Shown piece by piece: positions 3,364-47,596 of a stretch of DNA of 50,588 nt. The position numbers and the translations under genes are program-made. The notes below the pieces were generated by a model. It saw only the letters and a list, made by a program, of their open reading frames with translations. It searched no databases and was not told where the DNA came from. This DNA comes from an uncultured Gammaproteobacteria bacterium (GTDB taxonomy: Bacteria > Patescibacteriota > Patescibacteriia > UBA9934 > GWF2-40-263): the NCBI GenBank assembly GCA_964374035.1, contig CAYJWY010000002.1:1-50588 (forward strand), in the 5' to 3' direction. Each line of letters starts with the position of its first letter. Position 1 is the stretch's first letter.

Positions 3364-3386
3364 GGGGTCAGGTCCGACTACCGACT
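3364..3386 (+). repeat. REP element (left flank of RAYT)
   Basis: GGGGTCAGGTCCGACTACCGACT, starting 5 nt after the ABC-F stop codon. Confidence 0.9.
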
Positions 3387-3403
3387 TTTTAAATAATATC
3401 GTT

Positions 3404-4270
3404 ATGGCAAGACCGCTACGCGTTCAATACCCAGATGCTCTCTATCATGTCATCGCACGAGGAAATGCCTCACAAGACATCTTTCTTGATCATCGCGATC
3501 GTCAAAAGTTTTTGTCTTGGCTTGAAGACACCCTTGCGACACACAATGTTATTTGCCACGCGTACTGTCTCATGGACAACCACTATCATTTGTTGCTCGA
3601 GACGCCGTATGCAAATTTATCCGTTGCCATGCGAGATCTCAACGGTCACTATTCTCAGTGGTTTAATGTGCGTCATGAACGTGTCGGACATTTGTTTCAA
3701 GGGCGTTACAAAGCATTTGTTATCGAAAAAGAACCGTATCTTTTCGAGGTTGCTCGCTATATCGTGCTCAACCCTGTGAGAGCCGGAATAGTTGAACATC
3801 CTCGAGAGTGGAGATGGAGCAGTTATCGAGCTACGGCAGGAATCGTCGAGGCGCCAGCATGGCTGTGTGTTGACTGGCTTTTGAAAAACTTCGACGAAGA
3901 AAGGGATACCGCTCAGAAGGCCTATCGTCGCTTCGTTCTGGCTGGTATCGAGGCAGAGGATCCTTACGAACATGTCGAGCATGCGTTCATTCTCGGTACG
4001 CCGCCATTCGTTCATTGGATTTGGGAGAATCACACAAACGGTTCGGAAACATTGAAGGACTATCCACGTGAACAACGGATCGTTGGAAGGCCGACGCTGG
4101 AAGAAATTTTTTCAGGTGTCACAACAAACCGTGCACGAAATAATGCCATTATTTTTGCTCGTATTCGTTGCGGATATCTTGCGACGGAGATTGCGCCTCT
4201 TGTGAATTTAGATCCAGCAGTCGTTGGAAGAATTAGTAGAGGAACCTATAATGTGGTAAAAAGTCGGTAG
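3404..4270 (+). CDS. IS200/IS605-like Y1 (HUH) transposase of the RAYT type, with a C-terminal DnaA_C-like HTH region
   Basis: YHVIARGN, HUH motif NHYHLLLE and catalytic-Tyr motif ARYIVLNPVRAG. The C-terminus (RARNNAIIFARIRCGYLATEIAPLVNL) resembles the DnaA C-terminal HTH. I prefer the ATG at 3404; the track's GTG at 3362 lies inside the REP. The stop TAG (4268-4270) lies inside the right REP. Confidence 0.85.
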   Translation: MARPLRVQYPDALYHVIARGNASQDIFLDHRDRQKFLSWLEDTLATHNVICHAYCLMDNHYHLLLETPYANLSVAMRDLNGHYSQWFNVRHERVGHLFQGRYKAFVIEKEPYLFEVARYIVLNPVRAGIVEHPREWRWSSYRATAGIVEAPAWLCVDWLLKNFDEERDTAQKAYRRFVLAGIEAEDPYEHVEHAFILGTPPFVHWIWENHTNGSETLKDYPREQRIVGRPTLEEIFSGVTTNRARNNAIIFARIRCGYLATEIAPLVNLDPAVVGRISRGTYNVVKSR

Positions 4271-4284
4271 TCGGACCTGACCCC
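4262..4284 (-). repeat. REP element (right flank of RAYT, inverted)
   Basis: AGTCGGTAGTCGGACCTGACCCC is the exact reverse complement of 3364-3386. Confidence 0.9.
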
Positions 4285-4292
4285 ATTTCGTT

Positions 4293-5180
4293 ATGGAAGT
4301 TATTATTTTCTACAAATATACAGTGGTTTCTGATCCAAAAGGATTCGTAACGTGGTTGAAGGGGCTTTGTGAATCGATTGGGATTAAGGGTCGTATTTTG
4401 ATTGCGCGAGAGGGGATCAATGGCACGGTTGAGGGGACGCGCGATCAGCTGGATTACGTTGAGACGGCTTTGCGTGAGACGGCGTTTGGTGATTTCCGCG
4501 ATCTCTGGTTTAAGTCGAGTCCAAGCAGGGGAGATGCGTTTAGGAAGTTGAAGATCAAGGCACGCCCATTTATCTTGAACGTTGGCCTTGAGGAATCTGT
4601 CATTGATCCAAACGTGACGACGGGGAAACACATCCAGGCTGAAGAGTTGAATCAGTGGTTCGAGAACGGTGAAGATTTTGAGATCATTGATATGCGTAAC
4701 GACTATGAGTACGGCGTAGGTCGATTCAAGAATTCAGTGAATCCAAACATGAATAATTTTCGCGATCTGAAAGATGTTGTGCCGAATCTTGCGCACCTCA
4801 AACAGAAAAAAGTTCTCACGGTCTGCACGTATGGCGTGCGTTGCGAGAAGGCTTCGGGATATTTGATGCAACAAGGTTTCGAGAACGTTTATCAGCTTCA
4901 CGGCGGAATCGGAACCTACATGAAGAATTACCCTGGACAGCATTTTGACGGCTCGCTCTATGTATTTGACGCACGTATGACTGAACGTTTTACTGATCAA
5001 TACACGATTGTCGGCACATGTGTCGCGTGTAATCAAAAAAGCGAGCGCTTTGGAAATTGTGCGCGCGCGGAGTGTCATAAACAACTCATTATTTGCGAGG
5101 CGTGTACGCAAACGCCTGTCTATTGCTCTTCACGTTGCGGCCCGTTGTCTATGCTAGTTCAAACGGCTCAACCGTGCTAG
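4293..5180 (+). CDS. trhO: Rhodanese-domain tRNA uridine(34) hydroxylase (UPF0176/YceA family)
   Basis: N-terminus FYKY...GRILIAREGINGTVEG, rhodanese active-site loop CTYGVRCEK, and a C-terminal Cys-rich region. Confidence 0.8.
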   Translation: MEVIIFYKYTVVSDPKGFVTWLKGLCESIGIKGRILIAREGINGTVEGTRDQLDYVETALRETAFGDFRDLWFKSSPSRGDAFRKLKIKARPFILNVGLEESVIDPNVTTGKHIQAEELNQWFENGEDFEIIDMRNDYEYGVGRFKNSVNPNMNNFRDLKDVVPNLAHLKQKKVLTVCTYGVRCEKASGYLMQQGFENVYQLHGGIGTYMKNYPGQHFDGSLYVFDARMTERFTDQYTIVGTCVACNQKSERFGNCARAECHKQLIICEACTQTPVYCSSRCGPLSMLVQTAQPC

Positions 5181-5213
5181 AATTAGAAGGAAATACGCCA
5201 TAATCATTGTTTT

Positions 5214-6806
5214 ATGAAATGGAAAATGATTGCTTTACTGCTTGTTGTGATGGTGGGTCTTGGAGCAAGTGCGGTGGTGTTTGCAACCCAGCCGCTTAGT
5301 ACGCAAGAACTCACAGCGACGCTTATTCCCGAGCAGGGAACCGTTGAAATGAAACATGTCGGCACGGATCAGTGGATCGTGGTTGAACGAAATACAATCG
5401 TTGTCGCCGGCGATGAAGTGCGAACGGGCGTGAACAGCGAAGCCTCAATTAACTTTTTTGACCAAGGCATTGCCAGACTTGCGAGTAACACAACGATCAC
5501 GATTGCGGAGGCGCGTGTTGATGATGCGAGCTCCACGTTTACGGGTCGTGTCATGTTGCAAGGTGGAAAGGTGTGGTCAAAGCTGTTGGACTTTCTCTCG
5601 CCGAATTCTGTCTACAATGTCGAGACGGCGAGTAGTGTTGCAACTGTTCGTGGAACCTCTTTCTTTGTTCAATCTGATGGCGCTCGCAAGGAGCGATTCT
5701 TTGTTGACTCGCATCGCGTTGATGTATTTGGTGAAGGGCAGGAGGTTCGTGTCGATGAAGGCAACAGTATGCAATGGGAAATTACGGACAACATTGCCAA
5801 ACCTCTTTTTGGCAATGAGGCCGGACTTCCGGATGACGATCGTGCTTGGGTGAAGGATGTGCGTGCCAGCGATAAGAAATTTTTGAAAGACGTTCGCAAT
5901 CGCAATGTGGAGCGATTGAAGGAGTTGTCTTCGGTGCGCAAGAATGGAGGGCTTGATAAACTGATTGACGCGGCGGAAACGATTCGACTCGCCGCAACAC
6001 TCGACAATCAAACCAAGGATCAACTGGCAGAGCGATTTGCATTGCGAAAATTTGCCGTGGCAGAGCTTGCGGTGATGCAGGGAGACGCGAAAAGTCCGTC
6101 GCAACGTGAACAGGCCTTGCGTGGGTTGCGTGGTGGATTGTCTGAGGAAGGACGTCGTTCTATGGGTGTGATGCTCCGTGCCATGGTGCATCAGGATGAA
6201 GATGCTCAAGTTCCAGAGGATCTTTGGAAAGAACTTGGCGAACGTCTTCCGGAAGAGGGGAACATGCTGGATTTTGTCACAAATCGTCGTGCATTGTTTC
6301 GTGATTTGATCAAATCCGAACCCACGCTTGATCAGCCTCTTGAGCTCAGGCCGTTGACCGACACCACCACGCTCACGCCACAACCACTCGAGATTCGACC
6401 GACGACGATCGCGCCAAAACCAATGCTTGCGCCAACGCCTGTCACGCAACCGGTTGCAGGCACCACAACGATTGCGCCCTCAACAGCGACAACGACTCAA
6501 CCGGTGCCTGTTGTGCCAACCGAATTACGTCTTGTGGCGGACAAGATCAATCTGAAGAGCGGACAAACGAGCATGATTCATGCGTGGCTTGTGATGAATG
6601 ACGGAACACAAAAAGACGTTACAAAGGATGTCGTGTGGTCCGCGACGCCTGACGATCTCAGTGGTGATGTTGTTGGTGGTGTTCAGGATGGTCTGTTTAC
6701 CGCAACATCCAACGGCGGAAAGACGACGGTTCGCGCAAGTATTCGTTCGTCTGAAAAAGAATTTTCCGCAACGATTCAGATGACCGTTTTTGTGATCGCG
6801 ATGTAA
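5214..6806 (+). CDS. FecR-domain protein with N-terminal membrane anchor, Pro/Thr-rich linker and C-terminal Big_2 (Ig-like) domain
   Basis: Signal/anchor MKWKMIALLLVVMVGLGASAVVFA. FecR-like segment VVAGDEVRTGVNSEASINFFDQGIARLASNTTITI...VATVRGTSFFV. The C-terminus is Ig-like (LFTATSNGGKTTVRASI). Confidence 0.7.
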   Translation: MKWKMIALLLVVMVGLGASAVVFATQPLSTQELTATLIPEQGTVEMKHVGTDQWIVVERNTIVVAGDEVRTGVNSEASINFFDQGIARLASNTTITIAEARVDDASSTFTGRVMLQGGKVWSKLLDFLSPNSVYNVETASSVATVRGTSFFVQSDGARKERFFVDSHRVDVFGEGQEVRVDEGNSMQWEITDNIAKPLFGNEAGLPDDDRAWVKDVRASDKKFLKDVRNRNVERLKELSSVRKNGGLDKLIDAAETIRLAATLDNQTKDQLAERFALRKFAVAELAVMQGDAKSPSQREQALRGLRGGLSEEGRRSMGVMLRAMVHQDEDAQVPEDLWKELGERLPEEGNMLDFVTNRRALFRDLIKSEPTLDQPLELRPLTDTTTLTPQPLEIRPTTIAPKPMLAPTPVTQPVAGTTTIAPSTATTTQPVPVVPTELRLVADKINLKSGQTSMIHAWLVMNDGTQKDVTKDVVWSATPDDLSGDVVGGVQDGLFTATSNGGKTTVRASIRSSEKEFSATIQMTVFVIAM

Positions 6807-18507: not shown

Positions 18508-18558
18508 GGGGTCAGGTCCGACTACCGACTTTTTTAGTCGGTAGTCGGACCTGACCCC
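18508..18558. repeat. REPIN-like doublet: two inverted REPs forming a perfect 23-bp hairpin with a TTTTT loop; likely also a bidirectional terminator
   Basis: GGGGTCAGGTCCGACTACCGACT-TTTTT-AGTCGGTAGTCGGACCTGACCCC, lying between convergent genes. Confidence 0.9.
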
Positions 18559-41522: not shown

Positions 41523-41598
41523 AAAAAAGTGACTGAGTGACTAGTGACTGAGTGACTAGTGACTGAATTTATCCTTAGTCACTAGTCACTCAGTCACT
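41523..41598 (-). repeat. Tandem and inverted GTGACT repeats forming alternative 22-bp hairpins; terminator/attenuator-like
   Basis: Five direct GTGACT units lie in 15-nt periods (41529-41566). Three inverted AGTCAC units lie at 41577-41597. On the minus strand a T6 tract abuts the ATG at 41522. Confidence 0.85.
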
Positions 41599-41619
41599 TG
41601 CGTCCTCATATTCTATTCC

Positions 41620-44571
41620 CTACTGCCTGAACTCACAAATATCCGCATAGTCGCAATACGAACAGTGGAAACCCGGCGTTGGTTCGAACGTGCTTTCGCG
41701 AATCGCGGAGACGCGGTCCTCGATGGTTTCTCGTAGCTTGTCGAGATCAATTTCAGATCCAAGAAACGACACCGTCGAATTATCCTCGAGATAGTGAAAC
41801 GTCAGTTTCCTTGGCTCGAGTCCAAGGGCTTCTTTCGAGGCAATCTGGTAGAGAAATAATTGTTCCTTATCTTCGCGCGACAAGTCTTCAAGACGTTTGG
41901 GCGAACCGGTTTTGTAGTCGATAATCTCAATGCCGCCCTCAACGGCATCAATGCGGTCAATACGACCTTTGAGAACTACCGGACCAAATCGCAGAGTAAA
42001 ACCGACTTCCAGGAAGCGTGGCTCGGGCGTGCGTGTGTCGAATGATCGATAAAACGAACGTAATTGTTGCTTGCCTCGCTCACGATAGGCTTCGCGTTGA
42101 CGATCGTCGATGTACCAATCGTCCTGCCAATTCTTTTGATACAGATCGAGGAGTTCGTCGATCGAAACAGGGAAATCTACGATTGATTCTTGAGACATCG
42201 GTGGGGAAAATAAACGTTCCTGTTGCGACCCCTGGCGTTCTATCCACAGTTCAAAAAAATGTTGCAATGTTGCATGCATGGTCTTTCCAAACGAGAGCGT
42301 CCACTTGCCAAAGACAGGCACGTGCAAAATGTGGCCAAACTTGTACTGCAACGGACAGGTTCGAAACGCGGCGAGTTGCGTAAATGAAAATTGTTTCGGC
42401 AATGCATGGGTGGTGACGTAGGGATCGGTCTGATTGTCGAGCACAGAATCCGTTGTATCGGTATCCAACACATTTAATTCGATCGTTTCTACCACGTGCG
42501 GTTTTTGATAACCCAATTCATCTAAAAACCGCGAGAGTTTTCTCGACCGCGCTCCCCCATAATCATCGGCCGATGTAACATACAATCCGTCTTTCGCGCG
42601 CGTCATTGCGACATAAAACAAGCGACGTTCCTCCTGAAGATGTTGTTCGCTGTCGTGCTCTGGTTGGGGATCAAGCTCGCGCGGAAGTGGAATCGCGTCC
42701 GTGCGTCGTTGCGTCGGAAATTTTCGGTCGATGAGATTCACAACAAAGACATGAGCAAACTCAAGGCCTTTGGCCGCGTGAACGGTCATAATACGAACCA
42801 AATCCGGGCCGGATTCAAGATCAACACTGAGCGAACCCTCCTCGCCCGCATCACGTTCGTGACCAAACTCTTCTAGAAACGTATGCAGTCCTTGGTGATC
42901 GCTTCGCGCCTCAAACGCCTTCATGCGTTCGAAGAGTTGCTGTAGGTAGCGAAAGTTCTCCTGCTTCTGTCGTTCGTTCAGTCCATTGATGTATTCAACA
43001 TAGCCCGTCTCTCGAACCGCACGAACAAACAACTCCGAGACGCGGCGCTTGCTCGCCTCGGTGCGGATTTCCGCGAGCATGGATAGCATGTGTTGAATCT
43101 TTGCGAGCTCGTCCGAGGCGATTTCAGAAAACGTTTGCGCGACCTGCGCAGACTCATACAACGACTTGCCTTTTCGTGCGGAGAGTTGATTCAACTCAGC
43201 AATCGTTATGGGATGAACGCCCCAATGTGGCATGGTGAGTACGCGGTACATGCTTGGACTGTGGTGGGGCTGATCGATGACGCGCAGAAGCGCAATGCTG
43301 TCGAGCACCACCGGCTTGGTATACAACCCTGACAACGCCAAAAATTGATACGGAATCGCATGGCGCTCAAGCGACGTTGCGAAGTCTTCACCAGCCGCAT
43401 TTGATCGAACAAGAATGGCGAAGTCGTTCCAGGTAAGGTTCTTATCCTGTTCTTTCAAGTCAAGAATTTTCTGCACGACTTGAGCAACTTCTTCCTCAAG
43501 TGTTCGCGCGTGCAAGTGATCGATGACTCCCAACGTCTCACGCTGTGACTCGAGCCGCTTCGACAGCGACGTGTCGCGCGCTTCGAGCCGATTTGGATTA
43601 TTGTTTTGAATGAACGCATAGGCACGGTCTAGAATCGCCTGCCCCGATCGATAATTCTTATTGAGCACGATCTTCCGTGCACTGGGATAGTCCTCGTTAA
43701 AACGCAAAATGTTCACGAGCGACGCGCCTCGAAATTTATAAATCGCCTGATCGTCATCGCCAACAACCGTGAGATTGGGCGCGTCGAATCCGGCAATCAG
43801 CGTGATCAAGTCATACTGCGCCTGATTCGTATCTTGAAATTCATCGACGAGGATGTATGGGTAGTGGGCTTTTATCTTCTGTAAAATCTTCGGTCGTTCA
43901 CTCAGGAGTCGTTTCGTATACAAAATGAGATCACCAAAGTCGAGCGAGTCGTGCTCGAGTAGAATCGACTGATAGGTCTGATACGCTCGAGCAAGCTCAT
44001 CGATCCGCGCGACCTCGGTCAGGACGTCTTGGTCGCCATGCATCGAATCCTCATCCGCTTTCTTCCCCTCAGCAAAGTCAACATAGGCCTGTGGATGAAT
44101 TCCCGCGTCTTTTGCTCGAGAAAAATGCGTAAGGAATGATCGCAGATACTTGGTTGGGTTGCCAAGCGGTCGATAGTAGTCAAGCTCGAAGCGGTCAAAC
44201 TGTGTGCGAACGAGCAACCAAGCCTCGAGCTCGGTCACAAGCTTAAAATCTCGCGAAAGGCCGATCTCCGCGCCGTAGTCGCGAAGTAAGCGTTCGCAAA
44301 ATGCGTGAAACGTGGAGATCTGTAAATCCGTATAGCCGTACGGCAACAGCATATCGACACGCTCCTCCATCTCACCAGCAGCCTTATCCGTAAACGTAAG
44401 CGCGAGAACATTCTCGGGTTTGCAAAGTCCTTGTTCAATGAACCAAGCGATACGCCGCGTAATCACGGTTGTCTTCCCTGTTCCCGCCCCCGCGACGATC
44501 ATAAGCGGACCACCGACATGGGTGACGGCTTGGATTTGTTCGGAGTTGAGGTCGCTCAGAAGATCGGACAT
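41620..44571 (-). CDS. UvrD/PcrA/AddA-type SF1 helicase fused to a C-terminal PD-(D/E)XK nuclease with a Cas4/AddB-like Cys cluster
   Basis: Walker A AGAGTGKTTVIT and DEFQDTN, plus further SF1 motifs. Nuclease GRIDRID...IIDYKTG. Cys residues CPLQYKF and CSYCDYADIC. Confidence 0.88.
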   Translation of the reverse strand: MSDLLSDLNSEQIQAVTHVGGPLMIVAGAGTGKTTVITRRIAWFIEQGLCKPENVLALTFTDKAAGEMEERVDMLLPYGYTDLQISTFHAFCERLLRDYGAEIGLSRDFKLVTELEAWLLVRTQFDRFELDYYRPLGNPTKYLRSFLTHFSRAKDAGIHPQAYVDFAEGKKADEDSMHGDQDVLTEVARIDELARAYQTYQSILLEHDSLDFGDLILYTKRLLSERPKILQKIKAHYPYILVDEFQDTNQAQYDLITLIAGFDAPNLTVVGDDDQAIYKFRGASLVNILRFNEDYPSARKIVLNKNYRSGQAILDRAYAFIQNNNPNRLEARDTSLSKRLESQRETLGVIDHLHARTLEEEVAQVVQKILDLKEQDKNLTWNDFAILVRSNAAGEDFATSLERHAIPYQFLALSGLYTKPVVLDSIALLRVIDQPHHSPSMYRVLTMPHWGVHPITIAELNQLSARKGKSLYESAQVAQTFSEIASDELAKIQHMLSMLAEIRTEASKRRVSELFVRAVRETGYVEYINGLNERQKQENFRYLQQLFERMKAFEARSDHQGLHTFLEEFGHERDAGEEGSLSVDLESGPDLVRIMTVHAAKGLEFAHVFVVNLIDRKFPTQRRTDAIPLPRELDPQPEHDSEQHLQEERRLFYVAMTRAKDGLYVTSADDYGGARSRKLSRFLDELGYQKPHVVETIELNVLDTDTTDSVLDNQTDPYVTTHALPKQFSFTQLAAFRTCPLQYKFGHILHVPVFGKWTLSFGKTMHATLQHFFELWIERQGSQQERLFSPPMSQESIVDFPVSIDELLDLYQKNWQDDWYIDDRQREAYRERGKQQLRSFYRSFDTRTPEPRFLEVGFTLRFGPVVLKGRIDRIDAVEGGIEIIDYKTGSPKRLEDLSREDKEQLFLYQIASKEALGLEPRKLTFHYLEDNSTVSFLGSEIDLDKLRETIEDRVSAIRESTFEPTPGFHCSYCDYADICEFRQ

Positions 44572-44580
44572 ATCAACGAC

Positions 44581-44589
44581 ATTTTAGCA
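44581..44589 (-). promoter_or_regulatory. Extended -10 promoter element (TGCTAAAAT) of the helicase gene
   Basis: The minus strand reads TGcTAAAAT. The ATG is 9 nt downstream with no SD, so a leaderless transcript is likely. The -35 position falls inside the palindrome. Confidence 0.45.
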
Positions 44590-44595
44590 CATGCA

Positions 44596-44652
44596 CCGCA
44601 ACCTGGTTGCCGTGAACGCAACCTGGTTGCGTTCACGGCAACCAGGTTGCGG
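44596..44652. repeat. Perfect 57-nt palindrome containing three 13-bp palindromic sites GCAACCWGGTTGC spaced 20 bp apart
   Basis: 28 of 28 positions pair around centre 44624. The sites are 44598-44610, 44618-44630 and 44638-44650. Confidence 0.95.
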
Positions 44653-44717
44653 GATGTTGGCGATTGACAATTTGGCTGAAGGAAGGATGTCAAATCCACT
44701 TCCCAACCTCTCAAACG

Positions 44718-44747
44718 AAAAAGACGCCGTACCTGTGTACTGGCGTC
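44718..44747 (-). terminator. Rho-independent terminator of the 522-aa island gene
   Basis: The minus strand reads GACGCC-13 nt-GGCGTC followed by TTTTT. Confidence 0.65.
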
Positions 44748-44791
44748 GAGGAGTGAGACTCACGATACGTCCTTCACAGCGACGTGTCGGT

Positions 44792-46360
44792 CTAGGTGGT
44801 CTCGTTGTTGGGCGTGGTGGTCGAGGTCCCGGACGTCGATTCGACCTGGTTGCCGATCCCGCCTGCGTCCGGCTCCGTCGTCTGGACCTTGACGGGGTCG
44901 GTGTAGCCGGCCTTCTCGGCGACCTGGTAGAGCAGGCGCTCGCGCAGGGCGACGTGGAAGCGATTGGCGTGGTTATACTCGCCGATGTGCTTGGCGATCC
45001 ACGCGGAGGCGACATCATTCGGGTTGAGCGTCTCGATCGTGACGTCGAGGCGGTTGCCGGAAAGCAGTTCCTCGATCGTCGGTCGAGCGTATCGACGCAT
45101 CTTCGAGAGCGTGCTGTCGATCGCGTCGTACCAAAGCCGCTCGGCACGCTTGAGCGCGTCCTTGGTGAACGGCCCGAGCTGGGCGCGGATGGCGTCGGGA
45201 TTCATCCCGGGCAGGATGAGCTGTTCGCGGATGGCCCGCATGAAGAGCGGGTTCTTGGAATCGAACGGCTTGCTCAGGCACCTGCGAACGAACCGCTCGG
45301 CCTCCTCGGGGTCGTAGCGCTCGAGCTTCTGGTCGAGGACGTCGAAGGGGTTGACGTTGAAGGTGATCCCGCTCAGATCGACCTTGGTCGACGCGCTCAG
45401 ATCGACCTCGCTTCGCAGGCCCATGTAGACCGCGTCGATGCGATTTTCACGCTCCGTGATCGTGAAGACGCACTCGCCGAAGGGGTAGAACTGCTTCCCC
45501 TTCTTCGCGGCCTCCTTTGAGATTCGATCGACGTCGCTCTCCTTGCAGACCAGGCGTGGAGTCTGAGAGCTCGGGTGGAGAACCACCTGCTTGTCGAAGT
45601 ACGTGTCGATCATGCAGATCGTCGTCCTGTCAAGCTCTCGAATTTTCAGGTAGCGTGGTGCATGGAACATGAGCTGTGTGCCCTGACGTCCGACGCCCCT
45701 TACGATCGGCTCGATTCTAGGCCAGTCCTTGTGAAAGGACTTCGTACGGCGGGCCTGATCGACCATGTTCTGCCAGCGCTGAACCAGCTCGAGGTCGGCG
45801 AGGCCCAGCGGAAGGAACTTGTACGGGCCCTTTCGCTTGGGTGCGTACAGAACGCCGTGGAACGCACCTCCCGAGACCACCGTGTTGTCCGGCAGTCGCT
45901 TGAGGAATTCAATGCCGACGTTCAGCAGAGGCACGATCTCGATCTCTCCGTACTGCTCGTAGCCTTCGACCACCTGTCGCGCAATGGGAGCCATATCTTC
46001 GTAGCCCTCGGTGAAGCGCTTCCTGGGAACGAACGTCACGCTGATGATCAGCGGAATGTTCGTCGGCTCGCCATGGGCGTCGGGAACCATTACTCGGCGA
46101 TTGCGCCAGTGCTCACGCTGACGCTGTGCCTCAGCCTTGACATTGATGCGTCGGCGCCGTGCCTCTTCCGGGGTCGACATGGTGGTCTCTGCCGCCACGC
46201 GGTCGAGATCATTGGCGGTCGAGATCACGGCCGGGGCCGCGTGCCAGACGACCATCTCGCCGGTGGTGACCGGTTCGCTGACGGCGGAGCCTTCCTCTTG
46301 AACGAAGGTGATTCCGAGGCGCCTAATGAGGTCCCCGGGTCCGAACTCTTCACTGGACAT
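44792..46360 (-). CDS. Hypothetical 522-aa protein encoded in the high-GC island (no recognisable family)
   Basis: Longest ORF in the region, with G/C-rich third codon positions. AAGGAG lies 8 nt upstream of the ATG at 46360. The track's extension to 46537 crosses the promoter region. Confidence 0.75.
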   Translation of the reverse strand: MSSEEFGPGDLIRRLGITFVQEEGSAVSEPVTTGEMVVWHAAPAVISTANDLDRVAAETTMSTPEEARRRRINVKAEAQRQREHWRNRRVMVPDAHGEPTNIPLIISVTFVPRKRFTEGYEDMAPIARQVVEGYEQYGEIEIVPLLNVGIEFLKRLPDNTVVSGGAFHGVLYAPKRKGPYKFLPLGLADLELVQRWQNMVDQARRTKSFHKDWPRIEPIVRGVGRQGTQLMFHAPRYLKIRELDRTTICMIDTYFDKQVVLHPSSQTPRLVCKESDVDRISKEAAKKGKQFYPFGECVFTITERENRIDAVYMGLRSEVDLSASTKVDLSGITFNVNPFDVLDQKLERYDPEEAERFVRRCLSKPFDSKNPLFMRAIREQLILPGMNPDAIRAQLGPFTKDALKRAERLWYDAIDSTLSKMRRYARPTIEELLSGNRLDVTIETLNPNDVASAWIAKHIGEYNHANRFHVALRERLLYQVAEKAGYTDPVKVQTTEPDAGGIGNQVESTSGTSTTTPNNETT

Positions 46361-46627: not shown

Positions 46628-47596
46628 ATGGACAGAGTCAGTGCCTTGAAAGCGTTGTTTGGAGACAACGCCAATACGACAGCATCGGCGGAAGCGGTTC
46701 TTGCGCTCGGATCAGATCCACGACCCACCCCCGAGGAGGCCAGGCAACTCGGACAGCTGGGACAAGAAGGTAATCGAATTCTCAACAAGGCATGCGCATT
46801 CGCAGAGCGCCCTGAATTCGAATCCGAAGATATGGAGGGTGGAATCGCGCAGGCGATTCTGATCGATTACGCGGCTGATCTGAGCCGTGTTGAATCGACT
46901 CCGCAAGAGAGACAGGTTGCGCAAACGCCGCTCCTGGCGATTATGGATCCAGAACCGGCTCCGGAATCGAAGCCTCACCCGGATTTCATTACAATCCCTC
47001 AAGAGCTGACGCCGGCAAAGGTGGACTTGAACCATCCACCTCTCGACATCGAAGGAAACAAGGATATGGCTCGATGGAATCGAAAGAGGAGCCAGAGCGA
47101 CTCGGATCAAGATGATCCGGTGCAAAAAAAAGTTGTTGCACAGTTGGCTCAGCCGATCGAAGGTCACAAGGATGACCGTCGGAAACAAGATGAGGTCAAA
47201 GTCAAGCCGCCGCCTCCTCCGCCCAAGCCGCCCGAGACTCGCGAGAGCGATTGTCTGATCACGCCGCAGGGCCACGCGATCATTGTCACGCGCAAGTGGT
47301 ACATCTCGCGCACGGCAACGGAATCGTACTACAGGCGCATTCGCGATGGGCAGGTGGTGGGAGCAACACCCGAGGCACTGCACGCTGGGATGGAGGCCAG
47401 GCGCGTCGTCGCGAGCTGGGAACAAAACCAGAAGGACATCCTCAGTTCTCAAACGTCGAGCGGGACGGACAAGAGCTACGCGACGTACTTTCTGAAGTTG
47501 CTCGACGCGCTCAAGCGTAATCACCTCACGCAGGAGCACTACCGCGAGCTCTTCGTCGACGGAAAGGGGCCACACTCGCCACACGGCAAACAGTAG
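46628..47596 (+). CDS. Hypothetical 322-aa protein, largely low-complexity/acidic, with a PPPPPPKPPE linker and a ~110-aa C-terminal globular-looking region
   Basis: AGGAGG lies 6 nt upstream of the ATG at 46628. The track's start at 46556 is the TTG of the -35 box. Confidence 0.7.
   Translation: MDRVSALKALFGDNANTTASAEAVLALGSDPRPTPEEARQLGQLGQEGNRILNKACAFAERPEFESEDMEGGIAQAILIDYAADLSRVESTPQERQVAQTPLLAIMDPEPAPESKPHPDFITIPQELTPAKVDLNHPPLDIEGNKDMARWNRKRSQSDSDQDDPVQKKVVAQLAQPIEGHKDDRRKQDEVKVKPPPPPPKPPETRESDCLITPQGHAIIVTRKWYISRTATESYYRRIRDGQVVGATPEALHAGMEARRVVASWEQNQKDILSSQTSSGTDKSYATYFLKLLDALKRNHLTQEHYRELFVDGKGPHSPHGKQ

Follow-up and report, generated by a model that had tools for sequence, protein, structure and literature searches.

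What kind of element is the perfect 57-nt palindrome found directly upstream of a UvrD-type helicase gene in contig CAYJWY010000002.1 (assembly GCA_964374035.1) of an uncultured Uhrbacteria bacterium? The whole stretch of DNA analysed, positions 1 to 50,588 of that contig, is referred to as the window. Comparison of the window with related genomes, independent assemblies and known repeat families led us to favour, tentatively and at a little under an even chance, the reading that the palindrome is a young, lineage-specific structural hairpin array similar to repetitive extragenic palindromic (REP) sequences and bacterial interspersed mosaic elements (BIMEs), and not a dedicated operator. We favour it because the palindrome is lineage-specific, lies in a decaying spacer and appears unstable in size, and because related hairpins occur at positions that are not promoters.

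Direct sequence comparison and DNA folding placed the palindrome at 44596..44652 (unstranded, as are its parts), where two 28-nt arms, 44596-44623 and 44625-44652, are 100% complementary and separated by one base, the central T at 44624. Its module is 20 bp long and consists of a 13-bp palindrome, GCAACCWGGTTGC, and a 7-bp linker. The units are ordered site, CGTGAAC, site, GTTCACG, site, with two linker types in alternation: site 1 (GCAACCTGGTTGC, 44598..44610) is proximal to the helicase promoter, site 2 (GCAACCTGGTTGC, 44618..44630) occupies the centre of the whole palindrome and site 3 (GCAACCAGGTTGC, 44638..44650) is distal, while the linkers at 44611..44617 and 44631..44637 are reverse complements of each other. 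The exact GCAACCWGGTTGC starts at 44598, 44618 and 44638 are spaced by 20 bp. The perfect arms, the three equally spaced sites and the mutually complementary spacers described in the initial annotation were all recovered in the window sequence. As single-stranded DNA the inverted copies form a long, perfectly complementary hairpin with a folding energy of -39.8 kcal/mol (z = -11.9 against shuffles). The palindrome does not have the format of an intrinsic terminator: no T-run follows it on either strand, and a consensus promoter and terminator scan of 44200-45200 gave no match. Rfam at the gathering threshold had no match anywhere in the window, with only sub-threshold microRNA or small RNA hairpins at the palindrome, and no tRNA or tmRNA genes were present in the window. 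Judged by their consensus sequences, the formats of the LexA box, dif, attC, the CRISPR repeat and the DNA-uptake sequence do not fit.

No exact GCAACCWGGTTGC was found outside the palindrome in the window, nor any site with up to one mismatch, and the sites therefore form a single cluster. Allowing up to two mismatches, six occurrences were counted against 1.07 expected, a number reached in 0 of 100 shuffles; the two-mismatch matches were all intragenic and at chance level. The 12-mer ACCTGGTTGCCG, an exact copy of palindrome positions 44601-44612, recurs at 44844..44855 (unstranded), as had been noted from the sequence, and this copy may be a seed that was copied into the palindrome or a chance match. 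It lies about 200 nt from the palindrome, inside the 3' end of a 522-aa gene, in the codons for ...GIGNQVES... in the protein tail; about 0.15 such 12-mer matches are expected over the whole window, and far fewer so near the palindrome.

The helicase gene (41620..44571, minus strand, ATG at 44571) was assigned by domain searches and synteny to a 983-aa UvrD-type helicase with a C-terminal PD-(D/E)XK nuclease. Its homologues at 55-72% identity belong, where named, to Candidatus Uhrbacteria or other Patescibacteria, and in four relatives the gene heads a conserved block of dciA, a 126-aa gene, mreB, mreC, a 176-aa open reading frame (ORF), pbp2 and greA. The proposed extended -10 of its promoter, TGCTAAAAT, was confirmed at 44581..44589 on the minus strand by eye and by comparison with relatives, the hexamer ending 9 nt before the ATG. 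Five Uhrbacteria lineages (the window, L119 and L132-L134) have a -10-like element 8-9 nt ahead of the helicase ATG, of the TGnTAAAAT type in the window, L119 and L133 and of the TATGAT type in L132 and L134, while a Shine-Dalgarno sequence is absent before the ATG in all five (44569-44589 in the window). Since the -10 is placed so close to the ATG, the helicase mRNA is probably leaderless or nearly so, judging from these sequences. The extended -10 predicts a transcription start site (TSS) at about 44574, relative to which the palindrome spans about -22 to -78, with sites centred at about -30, -50 and -70; the proximal site covers about -24 to -36 and overlaps the core promoter. In agreement with the suggestion that the array lies over the -35 region, the proximal site covers the -35 position; the conserved TTGTCAA box that this argument would have needed is the -35 of a dead divergent promoter. 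On the other side of the palindrome, an intrinsic terminator of the 522-aa gene, with the stem GACGCCAGTAC/GTACGGCGTC followed by a T-run, was identified by folding and sequence at 44714..44747 (minus strand), and its distance was measured at about 62-66 nt, in agreement with the roughly 65 nt given before.

The origin of the divergent promoter became clear from the closest relative (loci L119-L121, helicase 72% identical) and from three further Uhrbacteria. A gene for a VWA-domain protein is divergent from the helicase gene in L119, L132 and L134; it is intact at 4543-5880 (minus) in L132 and 4535-5875 (minus) in L134, where the gene caller had put ORFs on the wrong strand. Alignment with these three loci revealed a relic of the gene in the window at 44664..44704 (plus strand), comprising a TTGACA -35 (44664..44669, plus), a ribosome-binding site (GAAGGAAGG), an ATG at 44687 and a few codons. 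By this sequence comparison the palindrome occupies the old divergent-promoter spacer, whose partner gene, VWA, is deleted, and it thus lies in DNA with half of its former function gone. The closest relative keeps the -10 element, the operon and both genes flanking the spacer on the far side, and lacks the palindrome: its upstream region reads TTTGTCAATC-ctaaac-TGTGCTAAAATGTCG, with 6 nt between two boxes that stand 70 nt apart in the window, and about 23 kb of that genome contain no copy of the 13-mer with one mismatch or fewer. The DNA upstream of the helicase differs among the four relatives, that of the three further Uhrbacteria being entirely different except for the -10, and the palindrome sites are absent from the orthologous promoters of L119, L132, L133 and L134. 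The distance from VWA start to helicase start is 115 nt in the window and 97-125 nt in relatives, so the palindrome replaced sequence and was not merely added.

The initial annotation had linked the palindrome to an acquired island formed by two G+C-rich orphan genes, recognised by ORF and composition, of 522 aa (46360-44792, minus) and 321 aa (46631-47596, plus). This link did not survive the comparison. Orthologues of both genes stand at the same place in the closest relative (L119 5167-7974), with 40% and 26% amino-acid identity, respectively, and are G+C-rich there too, so that by sequence the island genes are not recent arrivals; since that relative has the island and neither palindrome nor motif, the two are not coupled. 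The divergent orphan pair evolves fast, its 40% and 26% identities comparing with 72% for the neighbouring helicase. Neither protein had a match in Pfam, NCBIfam, PHROGs or PADLOC, and no DNA-binding domain was seen in either. The family of the 522-aa protein is rare (42 cluster representatives out of 1.84 billion), and the profile of the protein had no PDB or Pfam match; a confident structure model (pLDDT 82) displays beta-barrel domains and a helical C-terminal domain without a significant fold match, the weak sub-threshold resemblances being mostly to oligonucleotide/oligosaccharide-binding (OB) fold proteins. The 321-aa protein had no match in a word-based search, and no relative of it other than the L119 orthologue is known.

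Logan contigs of the same organism were recovered by exact-protein look-up from four sequencing runs, three of which cover the palindrome. The left-flank contigs end at arm-A-G in run ERR3478686 (L127) and at arm-A-GG in ERR4904391 (L128) and ERR4904390 (L129), while the right-flank contig L122 of ERR3478686 starts at C-T-arm, 1 nt before the centre. No contig from the three runs crosses the centre and all stop within 2 nt of it; in ERR3478686 both flanks read inward to an identical arm-A-G and cannot be merged into the window sequence. Since both arms were seen joined to both flanks, the palindrome is real. Simulation with a bidirected de Bruijn graph at k=31 indicated that the 57-nt form gives no break, while both ERR3478686 ends are obtained exactly from any perfect palindrome with arms longer than 30 nt (e.g. 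4-5 sites); the ends of L128 and L129, which extend one base more, are accounted for only in part. Two other models, flip and flop forms of the centre occurring together and fold-back chimeras, were discarded after simulation, as in both cases the graph breaks before the centre, unlike the observed ends. Because the contigs stop at the centre and the 57-nt form should assemble unbroken, these populations probably have a longer or variable array, and exactly three sites are counted in the window assembly alone. The exact helicase protein has no other record in the databases looked up, because the assemblies break 25 nt upstream of its start.

A second modular hairpin was found between the helicase stop and the dciA start (41527-41599), built of AGTCACT-type units, three in one arm against five in the other; a TTTTTT run then leads straight into the dciA ATG. 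L119 lacks this hairpin and has a gap of 47 nt between the two genes. Two Logan contigs, L122 and L130, are interrupted within the hairpin. On either side of the helicase gene there is thus a lineage-specific hairpin, the two being unrelated. The window also carries a gene of the REP-associated tyrosine transposase (RAYT) family, with exact copies of a repeat named REP1, and this, together with the second hairpin absent from the relative, is why we consider that the genome tolerates and spreads such elements.

In the structural-array reading, inverted duplication or template switching would have multiplied the 20-bp module; duplication of this kind would account for linkers that are exact reverse complements and for the perfect symmetry of the whole. 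Identical sites and reverse-complement linkers follow automatically from DNA duplication, and protein binding does not require them. The number of modules would probably vary between strains. The array would fill the spacer of the old divergent VWA/helicase promoter region, where deletion of the VWA gene relaxed selection on the DNA, and would have displaced the old upstream sequence, leaving the extended -10 as the sole driver of the helicase-dciA-mreBC-pbp2 block. In DNA the 28-bp stem may act as a cruciform, and in read-through RNA from the upstream gene it may serve as a roadblock or as a site of double-strand-specific cleavage; either would insulate the operon, and the insulator-hairpin role raised by the initial annotation is thus possible. 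Direct observation covers the anatomy, the restriction to this lineage, the position at the promoter and the way assemblies behave, whereas the origin by duplication, the variable copy number and the insulation are inferred.

Several observations weigh against this reading. Only one cluster was seen in 50.6 kb, and multicopy status is the defining property of REPs. The RAYT gene of the window is flanked by REP1 and not by the 13-mer motif, no target duplication or other transposition footprint was found at the palindrome borders, and the palindrome replaced sequence instead of simply adding to the spacer. The proximal site lies exactly over the -35, and the spacing of about two helical turns would favour a bound oligomer. 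Finally, occurrence of the 13-mer as a pair in a Streptomyces MarR-type promoter and near a Burkholderiales ParB-like gene suggests, from sequence context, that it is a workable protein-binding site.

The last point concerns the principal alternative, which we regard as unlikely, namely that the palindrome is an operator array at which a dimeric helix-turn-helix (HTH) or winged-helix protein binds three dyads cooperatively on one face of the DNA, occludes the -35 and represses the block. This alternative is supported by three identical 13-bp dyads 20 bp apart, centred at about -30, -50 and -70. To see in which contexts the motif occurs elsewhere, one genome per species was scanned for two sites within 30 nt. 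At least 118 paired loci (L001-L118) were among the matches listed, against about 0.3 expected by chance as an estimate; no Uhrbacteria record was among those listed. In several Streptomyces (L024 5590-5627, L045, L071, L009 and L114) a pair of the identical 13-mers stands on either side of a TTGACA promoter located between genes for a MarR-family protein and an alpha/beta-hydrolase. In Burkholderiales L005 (3794-3874) and L066 the site is repeated at 34-bp spacing, with three GCAACCAGGTTGC copies in L005, which carries a ParB/SopB-HTH gene beside the repeats and a DUF3701 integrase; this suggests a centromere-like array on an integrative element. Both contexts speak for the operator.

On the contrary, most of the paired loci listed are REP-like doublets, spread over dozens of different contigs in a small number of Gaiellaceae, Actinomycetes and Acidobacteria metagenome-assembled genomes (MAGs), some of which carry clusters of 4-6 sites. 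The doublet form GCAACCAGGTTGC-NNN-GCAACCTGGTTGC is scattered in the Gaiellaceae and Actinomycetes MAGs (e.g. L007, L023, L109, L111, L118 and L126), and Acidobacteria MAG53 has doublet variants with a spacing of about 30 nt. A 13-mer pair also lies inside an ORF of a Parcubacteria MAG, and Patescibacteria L108 has a 42-nt perfect palindrome of two exact sites between rpe and tkt. The contexts (REP doublets, a MarR promoter, ParB-linked repeats, coding sequence) are unrelated, and the 13-mer was accordingly rejected as the signature of one conserved binding protein; given the number of palindromic repeat families, recurrences across phyla are expected. A scan of viral contigs for paired sites returned zero, and a scan of JGI metagenomes for two sites at 7-nt spacing returned four high-GC Gaiellales-type matches and no Uhrbacteria. 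The view, listed in the initial annotation as one that would count against a specific site, that the motif is a generic dispersed REP-like family thus agrees with other genomes, while the source genome shows one cluster in 50.6 kb. Closer to the window, a 21-kb sample of Uhrbacteria L135 contains the hairpin AAAAGCAACCTGGTTAC-a-GTAACCAGGTTGCTTTTTT, whose arms are 12/13 identical to the site. It lies between convergent genes, where there is no promoter, and by its sequence has the look of a bidirectional terminator, which points to a clade hairpin family not tied to promoters.

Further evidence against an operator comes from the comparisons above. The array is in no orthologous promoter examined, though the -10 and the operon are conserved; there is no further window site at up to one mismatch, and the two-mismatch matches are of the intragenic, chance-level kind. 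No regulator gene adjoins the palindrome, the neighbouring orphan proteins being without a DNA-binding domain or significant fold match, and the perfect symmetry of the linkers is not needed for binding. A binding protein encoded by the island was likewise discarded, since neither protein shows a DNA-binding domain or fold and both genes also exist in the relative that lacks the sites. The operator proposed in the initial annotation, possibly served by the island, therefore failed on conservation, on further sites in the window and on a candidate regulator.

If the palindrome is instead a mobile repeat, the RAYT gene of the window (3404-4270) becomes relevant. Under this alternative, which we hold to be improbable, the palindrome would be a true BIME or REPIN (a REP doublet forming a hairpin), mobilised by that RAYT as a second REP class of the genome. 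The RAYT protein matches Y1_Tnp, has the HUH motif and a C-terminal extension, and reaches 75.7 bits against NF047646, the NCBIfam model for REP-associated tyrosine transposases, just below the cut-off of 80. Homologues with 56-74% identity occur across Uhrbacteria and other Patescibacteria, in more than 100 protein clusters, which fits a single-copy, vertically inherited gene. Support for mobilisation also comes from an Actinomycetes MAG (L044, 1-360), in which the stop codon of a RAYT homologue, 42% identical over 106 aa, lies inside a GCAACCAGGTTGC-tta-GCAACCTGGTTGC doublet; this case demonstrates that the hairpin can serve as a REP and is no proof for the window. The L044 RAYT is shorter and from another phylum, and sharing of a 13-mer is expected by chance across 185,000 genomes.

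As a rule, REPINs flank the RAYT to which they belong (PMC5581495; PMC3337134), and the cognate repeat here is therefore REP1 (GGGGTCAGGTCCGACTACCGACT), exact inverted copies of which flank the RAYT gene at 3364 and 4262, and not GCAACCWGGTTGC. REP1 is also the only 16-mer family present at least four times in the window: besides the two RAYT-flanking copies, there is an exact singlet at 171 (171-193) and an inverted doublet at 18508/18536 (18508-18558), with a 24-bp perfect stem, which is REPIN-like and lies between convergent genes. In the Uhrbacteria loci L135/L136 and L137, either REP1 itself or a related repeat stands on both sides of the RAYT gene, of the GGGGTCAGGTC type in L135 and L137. 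The RAYT regions are at 9910-10904 in L135, in L136, and at 9940-10890 in L137; compared with L136, L135 has an extra 74-nt duplication carrying one REP copy. Judged from the repeats and the gene, the region 3364-4284 of the window is a complete REP-RAYT system in Uhrbacteria, in an arrangement conserved in other Uhrbacteria. The literature searched contained no paper linking REPs with Patescibacteria.

Two further alternatives assign the structure itself a regulatory role. In the first, also improbable in our estimation, the array would work as a palindromic switch of variable copy number, by cruciform formation or by way of a bound protein, and would set helicase-dciA-mreBC-pbp2 expression in a lineage with few transcription factors, giving phase-variable control over genes for replication and cell shape. 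In the second, which we consider quite improbable, supercoiling-dependent extrusion of the palindrome would alter promoter geometry or local superhelicity and so tune the operon. In its favour are the perfect arms, the high stability of the hairpin and a location immediately upstream of the -10. A synthetic precedent for cruciform-regulated promoters in E. coli was reportedly provided by Horwitz and Loeb in 1988. On the contrary, the G+C-rich centre makes extrusion slow, removal of the extruded arms leaves TTGTCA 21 nt from the -10, a non-functional spacing, and the palindrome is not conserved in relatives.

An assembly artefact, in which a fold-back or mis-join created a palindrome that the organism does not have, is very improbable. 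No independent contig crosses the palindrome, and the left and right ends of ERR3478686 disagree with the window at the central base; however, three left-flank contigs and the right-flank contig L122 run from unique flank through the full arm into the centre, beyond the arms the two flanks are unique sequences with no reverse-complement relation to one another, and the internal modular design is unlike a chimeric join, so that only the number of sites is in doubt. The fold-back concern voiced at the outset is thus answered for the arms, which are joined to unique flanks in three runs, and persists for the size of the array. A site for recombination, hairpin-telomere resolution, partition or replication initiation, as had also been proposed, is scarcely credible: size and symmetry recall protelomerase targets, the 6+1+6 format recalls KorB-type operators and a dciA gene lies downstream of the helicase, but ordinary syntenic chromosomal genes stand on both sides, there is no GC-skew turn at the palindrome, relatives with the same gene order lack it, and no supporting gene or end structure was found, protelomerase, non-RAYT recombinase, ParB, Rep and DnaA being absent among the ORFs scanned (most of those above 150 aa upstream of 29.1 kb, the palindrome neighbourhood and the syntenic stretch annotated in L119).

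If the palindrome is a structural repeat, it is ordinary in kind, and candidate-phyla bacteria with genomes of about 1 Mb possess and remodel hairpin repeats, a conserved REP-RAYT system among them; promoter-proximal DNA of essential operons can then be taken over by repeats of this sort. If instead an operator or switch reading is true, the palindrome would offer a rare handle on gene regulation in uncultured Patescibacteria. In practice, the palindrome interrupts short-read assemblies and obscures where the helicase gene truly starts, and MAGs of Uhrbacteria may be systematically fragmented at such hairpins.

The BIME/REP clusters of enterobacteria are reported to consist of alternately oriented palindromic units with two linker types (Gilson 1991; Bachellier 1999). 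The palindrome resembles them in being extragenic, in having short hairpin units in alternating orientation with alternating linkers, in its probably variable copy number and in its absence at the same locus in close relatives, while it differs in that its units are perfect and 13 bp long, compared with imperfect REPs of 35-40 nt, that one cluster was seen and that the whole array is perfectly palindromic. With REPIN-RAYT systems (PMC3116915, PMC3337134, PMC5581495) it shares inverted copies that form a long hairpin and a RAYT gene in the window; in Gaiellales MAGs the identical 13-mer forms REPIN-like doublets, and REP doublets are known as co-opted terminators, as the L135 hairpin appears to be. 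On the contrary, the palindrome is not the RAYT-flanking repeat, which is REP1, and it has three or more units where a REPIN is a doublet. Compared with KorB/ParB-type sites, the 6+1+6 palindrome format is shared, as are the three GCAACCAGGTTGC copies beside a ParB/SopB-HTH gene in L005, but no ParB-like gene is among the window ORFs scanned, and centromere arrays are direct repeats with identical linkers. The lambda/434 OR1-OR3 and MarR-type paired operators are matched by the three dyads, sites in the 13-17 bp range, spacers of about 7 bp and overlap with a promoter, and the MarR type additionally by the same 13-mer pair in the Streptomyces MarR promoter; in those operators, however, natural sites vary, spacers are unrelated and the repressor gene adjoins and is co-conserved, none of which holds for the palindrome.

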